32,000 bases of DNA from Streptococcus rubneri (GTDB taxonomy: Bacteria > Bacillota > Bacilli > Lactobacillales > Streptococcaceae): contig NZ_SRRP01000002.1 in the NCBI RefSeq assembly GCF_004785935.1, positions 49,616-81,615 on the forward strand. The letters are read 5' to 3'. Of this stretch, positions 1,073-29,254 are shown one piece after another (positions within the stretch are counted from its first letter, which is position 1; each line of letters begins with the position of its first letter). The notes beneath the pieces were generated by a model. The model had not been told where the DNA came from, did no database searches, and saw nothing but the letters and a program-made list of their open reading frames with translations. Both the position numbers and the translations under genes were made by a program.

Positions 1073-2014
1073 ATGGTTCAAGAAATTGCCCAAGCTATTA
1101 TTCGTAGAGCCCACCAAGAAGAGGCTCAGGATATTTATTTTGTGCCTCGTGCTAGAGAATACCAGCTCTATTTGAGGATTGGAGATGAAAGGCGCTTTGT
1201 TCAATCGTATGAGAGAGAGCAGATGGCAGCGGTCATCAGTCATTTTAAGTTTGTAGCAGGGATGAATGTCGGAGAGAGGCGAAGGAGTCAGTTAGGTTCC
1301 TGTGATTATGCTTTAGGAGACATCGTCTTATCCTTACGTCTATCCACCGTAGGAGATTACCGAGGGGATGAAAGTCTTGTCATTCGCCTCTTACATAATC
1401 AGGAACGAGAACTCCGCTTTTGGTTTGATCAGCTTCAGGAGTTAGAAGAAAAGGTGAGTGGGAGAGGGCTTTATCTATTCTCAGGCCCAGTCGGATCGGG
1501 GAAGACGACCCTGATGCATGCCTTGGCCAAGGGGAAATTTGCAGGCCAGCAGGTCATGTCCATCGAAGACCCGGTAGAAATCAAACAAGAAGAAGTCTTG
1601 CAACTGCAACTAAATGAAGCGATTGGTATGACCTATGATTCTTTAATCAAACTTTCCTTGCGGCATCGCCCAGATTTATTGATGATTGGTGAAATCCGAG
1701 ACCAAGAGACAGCCAGAGCTGTTGTTCGGGCTAGCTTGACAGGTGTTACAGTTTTTTCGACCATCCATGCAAAGAGTATTCCAGGAGTCTATGAGCGTCT
1801 ACTGGAGCTAGGAGTGAGCGAGGAGGAATTAAAGATTGTACTCCAAGGGGTTTGCTACCAGCGCTTGATTAAGGGAGGAGGTGTCACAGACTTTGTCACC
1901 AAAGACTATCAACAGCATTCCAGCAAAAAATGGAACCAACAAATTGATGCACTTTATGAAGCTGGATATATCCAGCTGGATCAGGCGCAAGCCGAAAAAA
2001 TTATCGATTGCTAA
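1073..2014 (+). CDS. comYA: Competence type IV pilus ATPase ComGA/ComYA
   Basis: Secretion ATPase motifs: Walker A GPVGSGKTTLMHAL, HRPDLLMIGEIRDQETA; AAAGGAGG RBS before ATG 1073. Confidence 0.95.
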   Translation: MVQEIAQAIIRRAHQEEAQDIYFVPRAREYQLYLRIGDERRFVQSYEREQMAAVISHFKFVAGMNVGERRRSQLGSCDYALGDIVLSLRLSTVGDYRGDESLVIRLLHNQERELRFWFDQLQELEEKVSGRGLYLFSGPVGSGKTTLMHALAKGKFAGQQVMSIEDPVEIKQEEVLQLQLNEAIGMTYDSLIKLSLRHRPDLLMIGEIRDQETARAVVRASLTGVTVFSTIHAKSIPGVYERLLELGVSEEELKIVLQGVCYQRLIKGGGVTDFVTKDYQQHSSKKWNQQIDALYEAGYIQLDQAQAEKIIDC

Positions 2015-2978
2015 ACAAAGTCATGTGATTGAGCTTTTCCATAATCTATATTGCAGTGGTTTTCACCTGTCTGAGATTATTGACTTTCTAGGACGCAGTC
2101 AGTTGGTAGAGCCAGCTTTTGTAGAAGCCATGCGGACCAGCCTGGCTAACGGCAAGTCCCTATCTGGAATTTTATCCGATTTAGGCTTCTCAGATCAGGT
2201 AACGACCCAATTGGCCTTGGCAGAGCTCCATGGAAATGTGACCCTTAGTTTGGAAAAGATTCGTAGCTATTTAGAAAATTTGACCCAGGTCCGCAAAAAG
2301 TTAGTGGAGGTTGCGACCTATCCCCTCCTCTTATTGGGCTTTTTAGTCTTGATTATGCTAGGCTTAAAAAATTACCTGCTTCCCCAGTTGGATAGCCAGA
2401 ATGGGGCGACCCGTTTTATCAGTGTCTTTCCTCAGTATTTTTTGATAGGAAGTTTCCTTTTTGCGCTCATCGGCTGTTTCCTCTTTATCGTAGGACGCCG
2501 ATCGAGACGTTTGCCTTTAGTTAGCTGTTTAGCTCGTCTCCCTCTTATCCGTCCTTTTTTGCAGGATTACCTGACGGCCTATTACGCTCGTGAATGGGGG
2601 AATATGATTGCTCAAGGTTTGGAGTTGAGCCAAGTGTTTCCTATGATGCAAGCTCAACGTTCTCAGCTTTTTCGCGAGATTGGACGGGATTTAGAGATGG
2701 CTTTAGCCAACGGTAGATCCTTTTCAGAGCACATTCAGACCTATTCCTTCTTTAAGAATGAATTGACTCTCATGATTGAGTATGGGGAAGCTAAGTCCAA
2801 GTTAGGAAGTGAGTTAGAAGTGTTTGCAGATAAGACCTGGGAAGGTTTTTTTCATCGCTTGAATAAAGCCATGAATCTGGTCCAACCCTTGGTGTTTATT
2901 TTTGTCGCTCTGATGATTGTTTTACTCTATGCAGCCATGTTGCTGCCGATCTATGAAAATTTAGAGGTACATCTATGA
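1947..2978 (+). CDS. comYB: Competence pilus assembly membrane protein ComGB/ComYB
   Basis: Polytopic GspF-like protein (IELFHNLYCSGFHLSEIIDFLGRSQLV...); probable start within the ORF at M(HFMKLDISSW) about 1947; overlaps comYA. Confidence 0.9.
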   Translation: MHFMKLDISSWIRRKPKKLSIAKQSHVIELFHNLYCSGFHLSEIIDFLGRSQLVEPAFVEAMRTSLANGKSLSGILSDLGFSDQVTTQLALAELHGNVTLSLEKIRSYLENLTQVRKKLVEVATYPLLLLGFLVLIMLGLKNYLLPQLDSQNGATRFISVFPQYFLIGSFLFALIGCFLFIVGRRSRRLPLVSCLARLPLIRPFLQDYLTAYYAREWGNMIAQGLELSQVFPMMQAQRSQLFREIGRDLEMALANGRSFSEHIQTYSFFKNELTLMIEYGEAKSKLGSELEVFADKTWEGFFHRLNKAMNLVQPLVFIFVALMIVLLYAAMLLPIYENLEVHL

Positions 2979-3292
2979 AATCATTTCACAAATTGAAAGT
3001 ACAAGCTTTTACTCTGATTGAAATGCTTGTTGTTTTGCTGATTATCAGCGTTCTTCTTTTGCTCTTTGTTCCGAATTTGACCAAGCAGAAAGATTCGGTA
3101 ACAGATACAGGAAATCGTGCGGTGGTCAAAGTTGTAGAGAGTCAGGCTGAACTCTACGAACTCAATCATACCAATGAAACAGCCAGCCTTTCTAAGCTGG
3201 TGGCAGAAGGGCAGATCACCCAAAAACAAGCAGAGGCTTATCGAGCCCATTACAAAAAGAATACAGGTGATCAGCGTGCGGTTGCAGATTAA
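2975..3292 (+). CDS. comYC: Major competence pseudopilin ComGC/ComYC
   Basis: Prepilin motif QAFTLIEMLVVLLIISVLLLLFVPNL; 4-nt overlap with comYB. Confidence 0.95.
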   Translation: MKSFHKLKVQAFTLIEMLVVLLIISVLLLLFVPNLTKQKDSVTDTGNRAVVKVVESQAELYELNHTNETASLSKLVAEGQITQKQAEAYRAHYKKNTGDQRAVAD

Positions 3293-3686
3293 GGCCTTCA
3301 CTTTGCTAGAAAGCCTGTTGACATTGGGAATTGTAAGTCTTGCCTGCTGGCTTTTATCAGGATCGATCTATCAAGCCTTTGATCAGGTGGAAGAAAAGCT
3401 CTTTTTTTCTGAGTTTGAGCGGGTCTACCAAGAGACGCAAAAGATGAGTATAGGAAGAGAGGAGAAAGGGATCCTCACCATCGATCAGAAGGGGGTCCGT
3501 AGCCCTTATCAAGAACTTTCCCTTCCGAAGGGTGTTCAACTTATCAAAGAGAGCCAAATTGTCTTTAATGGAGCGGGAGGAAATTCTTCCTTGACTAAGA
3601 TTCAATTTCAAACGGAGAAAGAGGTGGTGACCTATCAGTTGGCGATTGGGAATGGAAAAATTAAGAAATCAACGACTCCGCGCTAG
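3267..3686 (+). CDS. comYD: Competence pseudopilin ComGD/ComYD
   Basis: KAFTLLESLLTLGIVSLACW prepilin motif; likely GTG start at 3267 overlapping the comYC 3' end. Confidence 0.88.
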   Translation: MISVRLQIKAFTLLESLLTLGIVSLACWLLSGSIYQAFDQVEEKLFFSEFERVYQETQKMSIGREEKGILTIDQKGVRSPYQELSLPKGVQLIKESQIVFNGAGGNSSLTKIQFQTEKEVVTYQLAIGNGKIKKSTTPR

Positions 3687-3945
3687 TCTTTTGTTTGAAG
3701 GTTTGATTGCTCTAGCCATTTTTGCCTCTCTGACGACACTTTTGCTGGGAGAAATACGTCAATCTCGTCAAAGAAGACTAGAGGAGTTACAGAAGGCAGA
3801 AGTCTTGCGAGTCGCAAAAATGGCTATCCAGACAAGGCAGGATCAATTGACCATCAACCAGGTCAGTGTTCAAGTGGAGAAATCTGCCAAGTCCTTAAAG
3901 GTCTATCATGAGGGAAAGGTTGTGATTGCTGTTGAAAAGAAATAA
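3646..3945 (+). CDS. comYE: Competence pseudopilin ComGE/ComYE
   Basis: RASLLFEGLIALAIFASLTTLLLGEI N-terminal hydrophobic helix; operon position. Confidence 0.85.
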   Translation: MGMEKLRNQRLRASLLFEGLIALAIFASLTTLLLGEIRQSRQRRLEELQKAEVLRVAKMAIQTRQDQLTINQVSVQVEKSAKSLKVYHEGKVVIAVEKK

Positions 3946-4381: not shown

Positions 4382-4793
4382 GGCTGGAATCCTCCTTTAT
4401 GCCCTCTTTATGTCGGCGGTTTTTAGTCTTTTGCTTCAGTTCTATCTGAATCGGCAAGTGGCAGAGAGACGGATCCTCCTTGCTAGTCAGCACCGGATTC
4501 AGGCTTATGCGCAAGCTCAATTGGCTGTTGATACTTGGGACCGGGAAGAAAAAACAATGACCTTCTCAACTGGCCGAGTCGATTTGGAAGAAAAATCGGA
4601 CTTTGCTGAGGTCAGCAGTCACTTAGAGGATGGGAGAACCTACCATTTCACCTTTGCCCTTCCTCCTAGCGAGAAGAAAAAAACCGACAAGAAGAAAAAG
4701 CAGAAGCAAGCTCCAGATTCAGCTACAGACCACTCGACCACAACTGAGGAAGAGAAGCCTCAGGTCTTCGAAAAGCATAGCGAAAACTCTTAA
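4347..4793 (+). CDS. comYG: Competence pilus protein ComGG/ComYG
   Basis: KKKQIEAGILLYALFMSAVFSLLLQFYLNRQVAERR; operon position, overlaps comYF. Confidence 0.82.
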   Translation: MWWKRIKKKQIEAGILLYALFMSAVFSLLLQFYLNRQVAERRILLASQHRIQAYAQAQLAVDTWDREEKTMTFSTGRVDLEEKSDFAEVSSHLEDGRTYHFTFALPPSEKKKTDKKKKQKQAPDSATDHSTTTEEEKPQVFEKHSENS

Positions 4794-4824
4794 AATTTGA
4801 TATGATTAAGAGATGGAGGAAAGC

Positions 4825-5778
4825 ATGAATTTCGAAAAAATTGAGAAAGCCTACGGCTACCTATTAGAAAATACCCAAACTATTCAAAATGATTTGCAGA
4901 GCAACTTTTATGATGCTCTAGTGGAGCAGAATGCCATCTATCTGGATGGGCAAACAGAGTTGACTCTAGTGAAGGGAAACAACCAGCGGCTGAAGGACTT
5001 GAACTTGAACAAGGAAGAATGGCGTCGCTCCTTCCAATATCTATTGATGAAGGCAGCCCAAACAGAGCCCCTACAAGCCAATCACCAATTTACGCCAGAT
5101 GGGATTGGATTTCTTCTGGTCTTTCTAGTGGATCAGTTGGCTAGTTCTGACAAAGTAGATGTGCTAGAAATGGGAAGTGGAACAGGAAACTTAGCCCAAA
5201 CCTTGATGAACAACTGTCAGCGCTCGTTAGATTATTTGGGATTGGAAATCGATGATCTCTTGATTGACCTTGCGGCCAGTATGGCAGAAGTGATGAAGGC
5301 AGATGTGAATTTTGCCCAAGGTGATGCCGTTCGGCCACAGGTTTTGAAGGAGAGCGATGTGATTATCAGCGATTTACCTGTCGGTTATTATCCAGATGAT
5401 GCCATTGCGAGTCGTTACCAGGTCGCTTCCCCTCAGGGCCACACCTATGCCCATCATTTATTGATCGAACAATCACTAAAATACTTAAAACCGGGTGGCG
5501 TCGCTATTTTTCTAGCTCCGAATGATCTTTTGACGAGTGAGCAGAGCCCACTGTTGAAAAAATGGATGCAAGATCATGCTCAGGTCTTGGCCATGGTGAC
5601 CTTGCCAGAGAACCTCTTTCGATCAGCCAATCTGGCAAAAACCATCTTTGTTTTACGCAAGCAAGAAGAAGCGGTAATCCAACCATTTGTCTATCCCTTG
5701 ACCGATTTGCAAAATCAGGAAGACGTTATGAAATTCCGTGAAAGTTTTCAAAACTGGAATAAAGAAAGTGAAATTTAA
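4825..5778 (+). CDS. comYH: Class I SAM-dependent methyltransferase (ComYH-like)
   Basis: VLEMGSGTGNLAQTL and 'VIISDLPVGYYP' (N6-MTase-like) motifs; conserved last gene after comYG, followed by ackA. Confidence 0.85.
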   Translation: MNFEKIEKAYGYLLENTQTIQNDLQSNFYDALVEQNAIYLDGQTELTLVKGNNQRLKDLNLNKEEWRRSFQYLLMKAAQTEPLQANHQFTPDGIGFLLVFLVDQLASSDKVDVLEMGSGTGNLAQTLMNNCQRSLDYLGLEIDDLLIDLAASMAEVMKADVNFAQGDAVRPQVLKESDVIISDLPVGYYPDDAIASRYQVASPQGHTYAHHLLIEQSLKYLKPGGVAIFLAPNDLLTSEQSPLLKKWMQDHAQVLAMVTLPENLFRSANLAKTIFVLRKQEEAVIQPFVYPLTDLQNQEDVMKFRESFQNWNKESEI

Positions 5779-7072: not shown

Positions 7073-7171
7073 ATCTGCTAACCATTTAGATGAGTTCTAT
7101 AGACAACAGGCTTGCTGAGCTTACATATCTATGGTATACTAGAAAAATAGTTTGAACATAGAGGTAAAATA

Positions 7172-7858
7172 ATGAAAAAATGGATGAAAAAGAAATGGAT
7201 TTCGAATGGTTTATGGCTACTGATCGGGACAGCCCTATTTCTAGCGACTCAGCTTCCTATGGTGGCTTTGTTTTACGGAGTTCAATATGCTTGGTCTGAC
7301 TTGATGATCAATGCCCTTGTCCTGGGAATGACAACTCTGCTTGTCTGTCTCCTTTGGTGGTTTATGAAGTGGAGCCCTTTAGATCGGCTAGATTTTTCAC
7401 AGATTTCGGGTCGAGATCTTGGAAGAAATTTCCTTTTCTTTTTGCTTCTACTTGCAAATAATTTTGTGGGAGCTACAGTGCTTCAGAATATAGGAGAGAC
7501 CACTACAGCCAATCAGGAAACAATTCAGGGGCTTTCTTCGGTGGCTCCTCAGCTGGCGATGGGTTTACTTCTTGTTGTTGTGGCGCCTTTAGGAGAAGAA
7601 ATTATCTGTCGGGCAGTCGTTCCCCGATTAGTCTTTAAAGGTTATGAAAAAATTGGTTATTTAGTCGGAGCTGCAGTCTTTGCTTATTTGCATGGTCCAA
7701 GTAATCTTGGTTCTTGGATCATCTATGGTGGAATGTCCCTCATCTTGACTTGGGTCGCTTATCGGTATAAACGTGTAGAATATTCGATTTTATTGCACTT
7801 GACCTTGAATAGTTTTGCCTTTCTGGTAACTATCCTGCTTTCTTTTCTTCCCGCTTAA
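7172..7858 (+). CDS. CPBP family intramembrane (CAAX-like) metalloprotease
   Basis: Multiple TM segments with APLGEEIICRAVVPR and AYLHG..; HLTLNSFAFL motif. Confidence 0.9.
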   Translation: MKKWMKKKWISNGLWLLIGTALFLATQLPMVALFYGVQYAWSDLMINALVLGMTTLLVCLLWWFMKWSPLDRLDFSQISGRDLGRNFLFFLLLLANNFVGATVLQNIGETTTANQETIQGLSSVAPQLAMGLLLVVVAPLGEEIICRAVVPRLVFKGYEKIGYLVGAAVFAYLHGPSNLGSWIIYGGMSLILTWVAYRYKRVEYSILLHLTLNSFAFLVTILLSFLPA

Positions 7859-7950
7859 AATATGGTAGAATGGTATCACCAATGGGTTTATTGAGGGAAC
7901 TTGGGGATTTCGACAGAGTCAGTCAACTAAGTGCAGAAAAACTAGAACTC

Positions 7951-21310: not shown

Positions 21311-21340
21311 CATCTGTCAAGTGACAGATGTCATTTTTTT
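21311..21340 (+). terminator. Terminator after LevT-like gene
   Basis: CATCTGTCA-ag-TGACAGATG followed by TCATTTTTTT. Confidence 0.8.
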
Positions 21341-21377
21341 ATTGACAGATGTCAACTTTTCTTTGTGACAAATGACA
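21321..21377 (+). promoter_or_regulatory. Three direct repeats of KTGACARATGNCA upstream of the PTS operon
   Basis: GTGACAGATGTCA (21321-21333), TTGACAGATGTCA (21342-21354), GTGACAAATGACA (21365-21377); first copy overlaps the terminator arm. Confidence 0.6.
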
Positions 21378-21380
21378 ATA

Positions 21381-24600: not shown

Positions 24601-24627
24601 TTAGCACTCGATGTCAAAGAGTGCTAA
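24601..24627 (+). promoter_or_regulatory. CIRCE operator (HrcA)
   Basis: TTAGCACTC-gatgtcaaa-GAGTGCTAA, perfect match. Confidence 0.97.
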
Positions 24628-24649: not shown

Positions 24650-26580
<1,931 letters not shown>

Positions 26581-26587
26581 TCTGATA

Positions 26588-26620
26588 CCAATGATTGGTG
26601 CTAAAGCACCGAATCATTGG
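26588..26620 (+). repeat. Strong hairpin immediately downstream of groEL
   Basis: CCAATGATT-GGTGCT-aa-AGCACC-g-AATCATTGG, 15 bp with one bulge. Confidence 0.8.
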
Positions 26621-26652
26621 ACGGTAGTCGCTATGTTGCGGCCTACCTAATC

Positions 26653-27353
26653 ATCTTACTAAGAAAACAAAGAAGGCATTATCGGCCTTCTTTATTTTCT
26701 GTCGTAACCTGTGTGTTTGATTGAGGCTTTGCCTCTAATCATTTGACGCCAACCACTATCAGGTGGCTTGGCTAAACGTCTTACTAGCTCAAAGGGAGGA
26801 AAGTATCGTTCCTCCCTTTTCACGTCGTAACCCCGTGGTCAATTTATTAGGTGGCTTTGTAGTTTACGGCAAGCACCATGGTGCCTTACCGAAGTGTCTT
26901 ACTAAGAAAACAAAGAAGGCAATATCGGCCTTCTTTATTTTCTGTCGTAACCTGTGTGCTTGATTGAGGCTTCGCCTCTAATTATTTGACGCCAACCACT
27001 ATCAGGTGGCTTGGCTAAACGTCTTACTAACTCAAGGGGTTAGTAGAATCTTTTCAATCTTCGACCAATCATAGGATGAACTGTCTGACGCAGTAGCTGA
27101 TTGGTTTCTTCCTTCGCTTTTCCAAGCTTGGAAGAGTCCTAATCAGCCTTGCGGGGGCGAGACAACGAACGAATGATTAAAATATTCGTTCTATCTCGCT
27201 CCCTTTTCACGTCGTAACCTATGTAATGGCAAGCACTATTGTGCCTTACCGAAGTGTCTTGCTAAGAAAACAAAGAAGGCATTATCGGCCTTCTTTATTT
27301 TCTGTCGTAATCTGTGTGCTTGATTGAGGCTTCGCCTCTAATCATCTTACGAA
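26653..27353. repeat. Tandem array of hairpin modules with alternating GTCTTACTA / GTCGTAACC linkers
   Basis: Three copies of the core starting at 26655, 26898 and 27259 (first two 132 bp and nearly identical, third missing about 37 bp); 11 linkers alternate strictly. Confidence 0.85.
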
Positions 27354-27480
27354 CTCAAAGGGAGGAAAAGGTGTTCTTTTCATCTTTATTTTAATGAGTT
27401 TCCATAAAATTTCACAATCTTAAAAAGGTTTCTGTTTTACTTATTTTCTTTTGTGTTTCAAAACATTGGAATGATAAAAC

Positions 27481-27588
27481 AACATAGATATATTATTGTC
27501 GAGCGAAATGAGTTGTGCCTTTTTCTTTTATTTTTTAATCTGATATCAATCAGAAGTGTTAAAAAAGACAGCTCATTCACACTATGTT
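27481..27588. repeat. Nested inverted-repeat element
   Basis: Four co-nested arm pairs: AACATAG/CTATGTT, AATGAG/CTCATT, TTTTTTAA/TTAAAAAA, TCTGAT/ATCAGA. Confidence 0.55.
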
Positions 27589-27684: not shown

Positions 27685-27878
27685 GTAGATAAAAGATCTA
27701 CATCGGGGCAAGGACAGGATTACTTCCCACATATTTGCCTTAAGACAATAAAACTTGATCGAACAAGCGGGTCTCTCAGGAGTTCCTAAAAACTTTTATC
27801 GACCTTTTTCATATTAAAAAATATTTTTGCCTGTCCTTGCCAATTAGCTCCTCCAGAATTTTCTGGGGGAGTTTTTTT
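27685..27878 (+). ncRNA. Candidate structured small RNA with own promoter and terminator
   Basis: Perfect 12-bp long-range pairing GGCAAGGACAGG (27707-27718) / CCTGTCCTTGCC (27830-27841); 5' hairpin GTAGAT/ATCTAC; promoter-like TTGTCT-16-TAAACT upstream; strong terminator at the end; no ORF. Confidence 0.55.
27848..27878 (+). terminator. Rho-independent terminator of the candidate small RNA
   Basis: CTCCTCCAGAA-tt-TTCTGGGGGAG-TTTTTTT. Confidence 0.9.
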
Positions 27879-27988
27879 ATTTCATAAACATTTCACATTT
27901 CTTTTCTATAATAACTATAACAAATGATGAAAGCGAGTCCAGTTTCTATCAATAAACTGGGAGTCTTTCTTTTAGATGGAGGTAGGAG

Positions 27989-29254
27989 ATGTTTCTCTTG
28001 CAACAGGCAATCGCTTATATTTCTCGAAAAAGAACGAGGAATCTGGTTCTCTTTCTGATTCTCCTCTTGATCCTCTCTTGCTTGTATTTCTGTTTTTCAC
28101 TGATGCAAGTAGGAGGAAGACTGGAGGACCATATCAAGCAGTCGGCTGGGACCAGTTTTGCTCTGACCAGTAAACAGGGGACTGCCCCCTTTGCTCTGAA
28201 GGAAGCTAAAAAAGTGCAGCAACTAGCTGGGGTAGGATCCATGGTCCCCCAATATGAAAGTCCCGTTCGCATTCTTGATAAAGAAGCGGTGACGGGACAG
28301 CAGTCGGTGGAGCGAGACGATTTGGGGCAGGAAGCCAAGCAAGCGCTAGGCGCTGTATTCACCCAGAAGACAGACCAGCACCTGGATTTCCGCAGTGGTA
28401 GTTTCCAACTGATGCAAGGCAAACACTTATCCGACAAGGCTCGCGGGCAGATCTTGATCCACCAAGAGTTGGCTAAGAAGAACAAGCTAAAGGTCGGAGA
28501 TTCCTTGACTTTATCCAGCTTTCAGATGGGAGAGACTCCTGCCAAAGAGCAAACCTTTAAAATCGTTGGGATCTTTTCGGGTAAGAAACAGGAAAAATTC
28601 ACAGGAATGACCTCTGATCTGAGTGAGAATCAAGTCTACCTCCCTTATGAGGATGCGACTAAGCTTCTTGGTCTCAGTCAGCAAGAAGTGACCCAGGTCA
28701 CCTTTGGAGTCAAAGATCCTGAGAAAATCGATGCCCTCTTGAAGCAAGTTAAAAGCTTGGATCTGGATTGGCAATCTCTGCGCGTGGTCGAAGATCGCAA
28801 GGCCTTTGACCAGATGAAGGAATCCTCTCAGACACTAGAAGGGCTAGTAAGGATCATGATGATCGTCCTCCTAGTGACTGGAGCCGGTGCCCTATCGCTC
28901 TTACTGAGTCTCTGGACACGGGAGCGGATCCATGAAATCGGGGTGCTCTTATCCATTGGGAAGAGCAAGGGACGGATCTTTGGACAGTTCCTCTTGGAAG
29001 TGGTGCTGGTATCCTTACTAGCGGTGATCCCAGCCTTTCTCATCGGACGGATGGTCAGCCATCGTTTCTTAGAGCAGTTTGTCGGACAGACAGGTCAACA
29101 GCAGACCCTAGACTTGCTCAACCAAATCCCTCAAGGCCTTTCCTTAGGAATCGCCTATGCTAGCCTCTTGTGCTTGATCCTTCTGTCGCTCGGTGTAACT
29201 ACCAGCATGATCTGGCGCAAGACCCCAAAAGAAATATTAACAAAAATGAGTTAA
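27989..29254 (+). CDS. ABC transporter permease, FtsX/MacB-like (Vex-type)
   Basis: N-terminal TM, large extracellular domain, three C-terminal TMs (LVRIMMIVLLVTGAGALSLLLSLWTRERIHEIGVLLSIGKSKGRIFGQFL). Confidence 0.88.
   Translation: MFLLQQAIAYISRKRTRNLVLFLILLLILSCLYFCFSLMQVGGRLEDHIKQSAGTSFALTSKQGTAPFALKEAKKVQQLAGVGSMVPQYESPVRILDKEAVTGQQSVERDDLGQEAKQALGAVFTQKTDQHLDFRSGSFQLMQGKHLSDKARGQILIHQELAKKNKLKVGDSLTLSSFQMGETPAKEQTFKIVGIFSGKKQEKFTGMTSDLSENQVYLPYEDATKLLGLSQQEVTQVTFGVKDPEKIDALLKQVKSLDLDWQSLRVVEDRKAFDQMKESSQTLEGLVRIMMIVLLVTGAGALSLLLSLWTRERIHEIGVLLSIGKSKGRIFGQFLLEVVLVSLLAVIPAFLIGRMVSHRFLEQFVGQTGQQQTLDLLNQIPQGLSLGIAYASLLCLILLSLGVTTSMIWRKTPKEILTKMS

Follow-up and report, generated by a model that had tools for sequence, protein, structure and literature searches.

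Hairpin arrays that follow genes are well known from enterobacteria, in which bacterial interspersed mosaic elements (BIMEs) form mosaic arrays of REP palindromic units behind genes, with a presumed role in stabilizing the mRNA upstream of them or in transcription termination. A genome carries hundreds of REP units, in alternating orientation, and the units are linked to RAYT transposases. In streptococci, the BOX elements of S. pneumoniae and S. mitis and the BOX-type elements of S. suis are built from short hairpin-forming modules that vary in number and permutation (Martin 1992; Croucher 2011, PMC3049150). BOX elements are interspersed, occur in more than 100 copies and in either orientation, and run from boxA to boxC, with inverted ends (PMC3049150). 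Here we describe an array of hairpin modules directly behind the chaperonin gene groEL of Streptococcus rubneri, in a 32,000-nt stretch of contig NZ_SRRP01000002.1 that we refer to throughout as the window.

Like BOX, the array is streptococcal, intergenic, hairpin-modular and permutable, and BOX too is often found at gene 3' ends and co-transcribed. Unlike BOX, its modules (A, B, C, D and P below) are confined to one locus, are co-oriented with groEL and have no terminal inverted repeats; lacking detectable boxA, boxB or boxC homology, interspersion and inverted termini, the array is not a BOX element. With BIMEs it shares a succession of hairpins with alternating linker types, a position after a gene and a variable copy number, but its units all point one way and occupy a single locus, which sets it apart from BIME and REP arrays. 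The modules are structured and undescribed, and the array they form at the 3' end of a gene is a modular series of hairpins, or a structured minisatellite. With a little better than even confidence, we read the array as a locus-bound stack of ~120-nt 'stop-codon-to-terminator' groESL units, of which the first would be functional and the remainder duplicated, recombined and partly decayed copies.

Anatomy of the array and its repeated unit

Eleven 9-nt linkers of two types alternate strictly between hairpin blocks from 26653 to 27352. T-type linkers (RTCTTRCKA) begin at 26653, 26778, 26896, 27021, 27256 and 27344, and G-type linkers (GTCGTAAYC) at 26701, 26824, 26944, 27211 and 27304. The original prediction, made from the letters of the window, had recognized this alternation and placed seven of the linkers exactly; those it put at 27257, 27345, 27212 and 27305 were each one base too high, and the long T-to-G spacing is 190 rather than 191 nt, the other spacings being right. 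The hairpins it quoted are also there, with 16-nt arms that are 94% complementary and occur three times in the array (hairpin A). Both linker patterns are enriched: the T pattern matches the window 10 times against 1.69 expected (none of 100 shuffles reaches 10), with six of the ten matches in the array, and the G pattern matches 6 times against 0.13 expected, with five in the array.

On a larger scale, the array consists of head-to-tail copies of one unit and is in this sense a tandem repeat. A 243-bp super-unit, T-A-G-B-T-C-G-D, is repeated ~2.6 times, and a 153-nt core recurs in three copies (26644-26796, 26887-27039 at 93% and 27247-27399 at 68%) spaced 243 and then 360 nt apart; the large indels kept Tandem Repeats Finder from reporting the array. 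Each super-unit resolves into two ~120-nt units on one plan: after a G-linker comes a G-to-T block that forms hairpins h1 and h2, and after a T-linker comes one terminator-like hairpin, which is either A or C. The strict T/G alternation is largely an outcome of tandem duplication of a unit carrying T, G, T, G; the eleven linkers do not represent eleven independent events, and their alternation is less striking than it seems.

The unit reaches back to the gene itself. The groEL stop context GATGTAATC aligns with the G-linker GTCGTAATC, and 26581-26652, from the groEL stop to the first T-linker, is a G-to-T block of type P; the repeated unit therefore spans stop codon to terminator. The array runs from the groEL stop codon into the left arm of a C-type hairpin, where it breaks off in unique flank, and on reading the sequence we saw neither terminal inverted repeats nor target duplications at its ends. 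In the window it amounts to 5.5 units: P-A, B-C, D-A, B-long, D'-A and B'-(C left arm). We found no other copies of its modules in the 32-kb window; a single 20-nt match led to a boxC'-like fragment described further below. The features are as follows.

24601-24627, + strand: perfect CIRCE operator, TTAGCACTC-N9-GAGTGCTAA, upstream of groES
24958-26580, + strand: groEL, with a TAA stop at 26578-26580 within GATGTAATC (26574-26582)
26581-26652, + strand: block P of unit 1, with bulged hairpins h1 (26588-26620) and h2 (26623-26647)
26583-26586 with 26650-26653, + strand: 4-bp closing helix of block P (TGAT with ATCA), joining h1 and h2 as a three-way junction
26653-26661, + strand: T-linker 1, ATCTTACTA, its first base in the closing helix and covarying (C-G 9, U-A 5)
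26662-26700, + strand: hairpin A copy 1, 16-nt arms with one C.A mismatch, then ATTTTCT; the first terminator-like hairpin past groEL
26701-26709, + strand: G-linker 1, GTCGTAACC
26710-26777, + strand: block B of unit 2, with h1 (26719-26740) and h2 (26748-26772)
26778-26786, + strand: T-linker 2
26787-26823, + strand: hairpin C, an 11-bp stem AAAGGGAGGAA/TTCCTCCCTTT at 26791-26819, then TCAC
26824-26832, + strand: G-linker 2
26833-26895, + strand: block D of unit 3, with h1 degenerate and h2 (26868-26890) carrying a C.A mismatch
26896-26952, + strand: T-linker 3, hairpin A copy 2 (26905-26943) and G-linker 3 (26944-26952)
26953-27029, + strand: block B copy 2 of unit 4, with h1 (26962-26983) and h2 (26991-27015), then T-linker 4 (27021-27029)
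27030-27139, - strand: BOX-type remnant, reversed, boxC'-like at ~27036-27110 and boxA'-like at 27106-27139, with boxB missing at 27105/27106
27153-27210, + strand: long terminator-like hairpin (27153-27203), then TTTTCAC, restoring the 3' end of a C-type block
27211-27264, + strand: G-linker 4, shortened block D' (h2 at 27228-27250) and T-linker 5, GTCTTGCTA (27256-27264)
27265-27312, + strand: hairpin A copy 3 (27265-27303) and G-linker 5, GTCGTAATC
27313-27373, + strand: truncated block B' (only h1, 27322-27343), T-linker 6, ATCTTACGA (27344-27352), and a C-type left arm (27353-27373)

Folding, distribution and exchange of modules

Compared with shuffled sequence the array folds strongly on both strands (z = -9.9 on the plus strand and -11.1 on the minus strand). 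Throughout, the h1 and h2 hairpins carry a single bulged base on the 3' arm, and h2 has the same architecture in every block type, namely 5 bp, a one-base bulge (C or T) and 4 bp. Its outer helix is paired in 93.8% of cases as against 79.9% in shuffles (none of 500 as high), with double changes at three of the five pairs; over all nine pairs, 522 of 585 cells are Watson-Crick and five pairs show double-sided changes between types.

A consensus fold of 14 groEL-proximal units, computed with RNAalifold, consists of a three-way junction (4-bp closing helix, h1 and h2) followed by the terminator hairpin. Compensatory changes occur at 19 of its 38 pairs, the long-range closing helix included, and pairing holds in 98.7% of cells; shuffles reach 81.9%, and sliding the partners lowers the figure to 31-48%. 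Helices 1-3 of this first-unit fold covary among the P, B and Q block types. In the closing helix the bases right after the stop codon pair with the last three bases of the block and the first base of the T-linker, and the G/A variation at that linker position is explained by its place in the helix. Pairing of TTAC with GTAA between the two linker types, which had been proposed as a closure for either kind of block, is predicted around the A hairpins in the minimum-energy fold but lies beyond the reach of covariation, because those bases (helix 4) never vary.

The G-to-T blocks are related to one another (z = 5.2 for B-P, 3.5 for B-D and 13.6 for Q-D), and block Q is a chimera with a P-like h1 and a D-like h2. 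Loops are conserved as well, as A[T/G]TATCG in hairpins A and C and as TAT on the 5' side of the h2 loops. All three A hairpins are predicted as intrinsic terminators on the plus strand (26669, 26912 and 27272), whereas hairpin C was passed over by the same simple scan although TTTTCAC trails its stem. The hairpin that closes the first unit, 81 nt past the groEL stop, is terminator-like. The top of h1 in block P is a palindrome, GGTGCTAAAGCACC (26599-26612), that contains the CIRCE half-site core GTGCTAA; this is probably a coincidence, since the related block type Q has GTGCTGA at that place.

To place the array among other genomes, we scanned one genome per species from 185,579 species for a T-linker, 25-40 nt, TTTTC, 1-2 nt and a G-linker. 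This retrieved 62 stretches, 53 of them streptococcal (from S. parasanguinis, S. australis, S. lactarius, S. gingivalis, S. taoyuanensis, S. xiaochunlingii and relatives). Every streptococcal match, from ~50 genomes, sits immediately behind groEL, each genome having a single array; the other nine (including Chryseobacterium and Bdellovibrionaceae) are coding sequence or chance. Hidden Markov models (HMMs) of both block classes likewise matched solely in groEL arrays, all co-oriented with groEL, in the 892 kb searched, of which 370 kb was S. mitis-group DNA. The one apparent exception to the locus rule is in L011, a Streptococcaceae gut isolate, in which a second array 2.2 kb further on starts exactly at the last gene's stop codon (AAG TAA CC TGATACC; AAGTAACCTGATACC). 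Between the two L011 arrays (3411-3734 and 1115-1359) lie three tandem paralogous genes (1362-3277, minus strand) encoding lipoprotein-like products of ~202 aa each. A text search of the literature for the linker sequence returned only unrelated primers.

Although bound to one locus, the array is highly variable, with 53 distinct architectures among 57 loci and 1.5 to 6 units in each. The groEL-proximal block may be P, B or Q and its hairpin A or C, even among S. australis strains with GroEL at least 98.8% identical; in that species, P, B and Q junctions and A and C terminators all occur in first position. Modules adjoin one another promiscuously at all three joints (T-linker, G-linker and h1/h2), and hybrid hairpins with one arm from each type occur. 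The joints themselves hardly change: the T-linker is (G/A)TCTTACTA in 128 of 133 cases and the G-linker GTCGTAA(C/T)(C/T) in 103 of 104, while the modules they join are 53-59% identical between types. In contig L005, which has an identical GroEL, the segment between two copies of CTCCCTTTTCACGTCGTAACC is absent relative to L001, either by deletion between direct repeats or by assembly collapse.

First and internal units differ in quality. Folding energy averages -0.468 kcal/mol per nt in groEL-proximal blocks versus -0.309 in internal ones (Mann-Whitney p = 5e-12), broken h2 pairs number 0.10 versus 0.63 per hairpin (p = 0.002), and first position is never taken by the degenerate D type, in which h1 has lost its pairing. 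Better folding of the first unit fits selection there and relaxed constraint on the copies behind it.

Operon context and BOX-type sequences

GroEL of the window is 100% identical to S. rubneri GroEL, and the perfect CIRCE upstream of groES marks this as the HrcA-controlled groESL operon. The array region is flanked by the groEL stop and by a gene for a MacB/FtsX-type ABC permease (27989-29254), both genes being on the plus strand. Upstream of the permease gene lies a strong terminator-like hairpin (27846-27873; 12 pairs, then a T-run), directly followed by a promoter-like site, TAAACA-16-TATAAT at 27885-27912, the sole one to score 10/12 in a consensus scan. The same crude scan found no plus-strand sigma-70-like sites in 26581-27450; the nearest to the array is at 27466-27494, beyond its last feature at 27373.

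A few further observations concern the genes around the array. In a GroEL homologue search, all of the 120 matches listed were 96-100% identical. Database GroEL entries of 594, 591 and 571 aa from this clade exceed 540 aa by 31-54 residues; loss of the stop codon and read-through into the array, or else another start call, may account for the extra length. In the C-type left arm past the last T-linker, a Shine-Dalgarno-like GGGAGGAAAA is followed by GTG and a 7-codon open reading frame (MFFSSLF; window 27359-27394), likely by chance. Elsewhere in the window, Tandem Repeats Finder reported 2.7 copies of a 23-nt unit, AGTGACAGATGTCAATTTTCTT, at 21320-21379 in a gap between two genes.

The relation of the array to BOX is twofold. 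Using an HMM built from 19 authentic A1B1C1 elements, retrieved with the BOXA1R primer sequence, nhmmer found no match to pneumococcal BOX in the window's array, and local alignments of the array modules to boxA, boxB and boxC scored no better than shuffles (z -0.1 to 0.8). By eye the linkers resemble joints of BOX, with GTCTTA(T)CTA..CTCAAA in boxB, GCCTTGCCGTAG at the boxA end and AACCTG at the boxC start, a likeness that we rejected as unproven because the alignments were no better than dinucleotide shuffles and nhmmer found no match. The lack of a match to BOX, as originally predicted, holds for the modules; missed was what lies in the 181-nt T-to-G block at 27030-27210. In four relatives (L012, L014, L061 and L068) the long T-to-G block carries a boxB module on the minus strand (BOX HMM ~1e-11; 2e-13 to 3e-11 in a smaller search), and this boxB sits exactly at a 51-nt gap in the window's copy, 27105/27106. 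Because of this coincidence of boxB and gap, we take 27030-27139 to be a boxB-less remnant, in reverse orientation, of a clade-specific BOX-type element, the link to BOX being indirect, through the boxB of the relatives.

Related pieces occur outside arrays. A second boxC'-like fragment, at 350-417 on the plus strand of the window, matches 27036-27110 in reverse; it lies directly after the stop codon of an open reading frame that runs off the window's left end, and a terminator hairpin (401-428) takes its left arm from the 3' part of the fragment, GGCTGGGTACTTACCCCAGCC (401-421) being followed by seven T (422-428). In S. parasanguinis, a BOX-type element of ~170-230 nt, with a boxB-like core between GAGAGAGTGGGACA inverted ends, is dispersed (L040 ~7650-7870, L025 ~7150-7370 and L030 ~4700-4990) and also occurs inside the arrays of L009, L011, L026, L028 and L030, where it replaces the 21-22-nt core of A-type and C-type hairpins. 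That the cores of both hairpin types are replaced suggests that BOX-type repeats land at, or exchange with, terminator hairpins by preference. Low-density BOX and SPRITE matches had already been reported for S. parasanguinis HSISM1 (PMC3875467, Table S9). A search of viral contigs for the BOXA1R reverse complement gave one unrelated high-GC match only.

Origin of the array and competing readings

Several further classes of element invite comparison. Rfam returned no matches at gathering thresholds; the best sub-threshold ones (mir-14 with 22 bits where 53 are required, and AniS with 19 where 50 are) are spurious, although the mir-14 match does outline the long hairpin at 27153-27203. Hairpin A, an AT-rich ~16-bp duplex with A-rich and T-rich flanks, resembles SPRITE as published (PMC3049150), a comparison made by description only; SPRITE is a dispersed family whereas the array occupies a single locus. 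An HMM of the A/C hairpins found nothing in the 370 kb of S. mitis-group DNA, which is weak negative evidence on SPRITE, and de novo repeat recovery from S. mitis-group loci, aimed at SPRITE, was swamped by BOX. Like minisatellites (variable-number tandem repeats) and tandem terminators, the array shows head-to-tail duplication, copy-number differences between strains, direct-repeat deletion (L005 versus L001) and terminator-like hairpins; unlike them, it is built not from near-identical copies but from types of module that have diverged, with compensatory changes in their stems, and that reassort in many combinations at joints which do not vary. The repeated presentation of a short conserved motif on stem-loops recalls, in manner of working only, sponge RNAs of the CsrB/RsmZ type, but the array has no homology to these, no CsrA-type GGA loop motif and no promoter of its own, and its first unit ends in a terminator. 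Nor is it a CRISPR, its linkers being only 9 nt long and of two types and its 'spacers' themselves repeated. Independent small-RNA genes lack support, since the crude scan showed no plus-strand promoter-like site within the array.

Under the reading we favor, each unit comprises a TAA-containing G-linker, two hairpins with a 3'-arm bulge held in a three-way junction, a T-linker and a terminator-like hairpin. The first would be the groESL 3' untranslated region (UTR) with its intrinsic terminator and is probably the functional copy, and the units behind it would be tandem duplicates, reshuffled through unequal or homologous recombination, with the T-linker, the G-linker and the h1/h2 joint as the conserved points of exchange, partly decayed and, in unit 4, invaded by a BOX-type mobile repeat. 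If active, the spare units may serve as back-up terminators or as 3' stem-loops that shield the MacB-type ABC transporter operon from groESL read-through, and they could also act as donors able to replace the groEL-proximal cassette.

A number of points weigh against this reading. The anatomy, the confinement to one locus and one orientation, the covariation, the shuffling of modules and the better folding of unit 1 are direct results, but termination, stabilization, a 3' UTR function and recombination as the generating mechanism are all things that we infer. The few module types mean that covariation records few independent events, and the comparison of first with internal units is confounded by the composition of types at each position. 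Hairpins A and C show no demonstrable homology to each other (z = 0.1). Action at the RNA level on the plus strand is not proven, since neither wobble counts nor folding energy favor a strand: G.U pairs number 29 on the plus and 17 on the minus strand in h2, and 0 and 11, respectively, in hairpin A. Above all, the reading leaves unexplained why linkers and loops stay nearly invariant in every copy. Internal linkers would not remain so clean under passive duplication and decay, and their state hints that a factor recognizes the sequence or that copies turn over very fast.

For that reason we keep open the rival in which the units are recognition modules. Here they would be functional structured RNA modules, lying within or processed from the groESL 3' UTR, whose invariant single-stranded linkers and loops are bound or cut by a factor (an RNA-binding protein or RNase), so that the array acts as a sponge, a processing cassette or a stability switch. 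Near-invariant linkers between modules that are 41-47% diverged speak for it, as do the conserved loops, the one bulged 3'-arm base kept in every h1 and h2, and the covarying stems, among them the long-range closing helix, which a DNA cruciform would not need. Nevertheless we judge it rather unlikely, given that the array lacks an internal plus-strand promoter-like site, that a terminator-like hairpin ends its first unit, that arrays hold anywhere from 1.5 to 6 units, with decay among the internal copies, and that there is neither an Rfam relative nor a strand bias in wobble pairs. A multivalent, clade-specific RNA platform of the chaperonin operon is another tentative possibility, unlikely as it stands: the linkers GUCUUACUA and GUCGUAACC and the loops would be bound by a protein or RNase, tuning groESL mRNA or titrating the factor, with the downstream copies as a reservoir that recombination draws on to exchange the groEL-proximal cassette. 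Wholly mobile origins find less favor with us. That the entire array is a mobile composite, BOX-type or MITE-like (miniature inverted-repeat transposable element), put together from 'box' modules as in S. suis, is improbable: its permutable hairpin modules do resemble BOX (Croucher 2011, PMC3049150), a true BOX-type piece sits in unit 4 and BOX-type copies are dispersed in the clade (including those of PMC3875467, Table S9), but the modules and both linkers occur only behind groEL, in one array per genome across ~50 genomes and in one orientation. The modules have no pneumococcal BOX similarity (z ~0; no nhmmer match), and the array, which ends without terminal inverted repeats or target duplications and has no dispersed copies, is not a MITE.

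We regard as quite improbable a DNA-level element, in which a recombinase or transposase recognizes the hairpins and short motifs as single-stranded or cruciform DNA, the locus is a hot spot, and template-switch correction of quasi-palindromes, not selection, preserves the stems. IS200/IS605 and RAYT enzymes do use bulged hairpins together with tetranucleotides such as TTAC and TCAA (IS608 sites), and TTAC, TCAA and AAAG stand together at each T-to-C joint; these matches are too short to carry weight. The lack of strand preference in folding and wobble pairs, the replacement of A-type and C-type hairpin cores by BOX-type elements in relatives and the three-gene cassette inside the L011 array would all suit such an element. 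It does not explain, however, how the closing helix covaries over ~67 nt, which is out of reach of hairpin-templated correction, nor are the arrays dispersed, and we saw no transposase gene beside those examined. Finally, we give next to no credence to decayed coding sequence or a pseudogene. Two short open reading frames, the longest at 43 and 66 aa, do overlap the array, but neither has a Pfam match, block lengths of 31-68 nt are not multiples of three, stop codons fall in both linker types, conservation follows the paired stems, and we found no protein homologue spanning several units.

Taken together, these results confirm what was originally observed and support part of its interpretation. 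The modules are indeed structured and non-coding, with covarying stems and two near-invariant linkers joining them, no open reading frame of substance crosses the region, and the Rfam scan that had been proposed was run and recovered no family. A MITE-like composite does not survive the confinement of modules and pattern to the 3' side of groEL, always in its orientation, and a locus of multiple small RNAs lacks support, given that no plus-strand promoter-like site lies inside the array and that a terminator-like hairpin closes the first unit, although the RNA may conceivably act in trans.

For the biology of these streptococci, the array indicates that the 3' end of a gene can evolve by exchange of hairpin cassettes, with BOX-like modularity but without mobility, and the BOX-type pieces embedded in it extend BOX-type repeats to S. 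rubneri. The locus offers a ready strain-typing marker for the S. parasanguinis/australis/rubneri group, and the array is a likely site of assembly collapse. If it is true that the linkers are recognition sites, they would define a new structured 3' UTR element of the heat-shock chaperonin operon.

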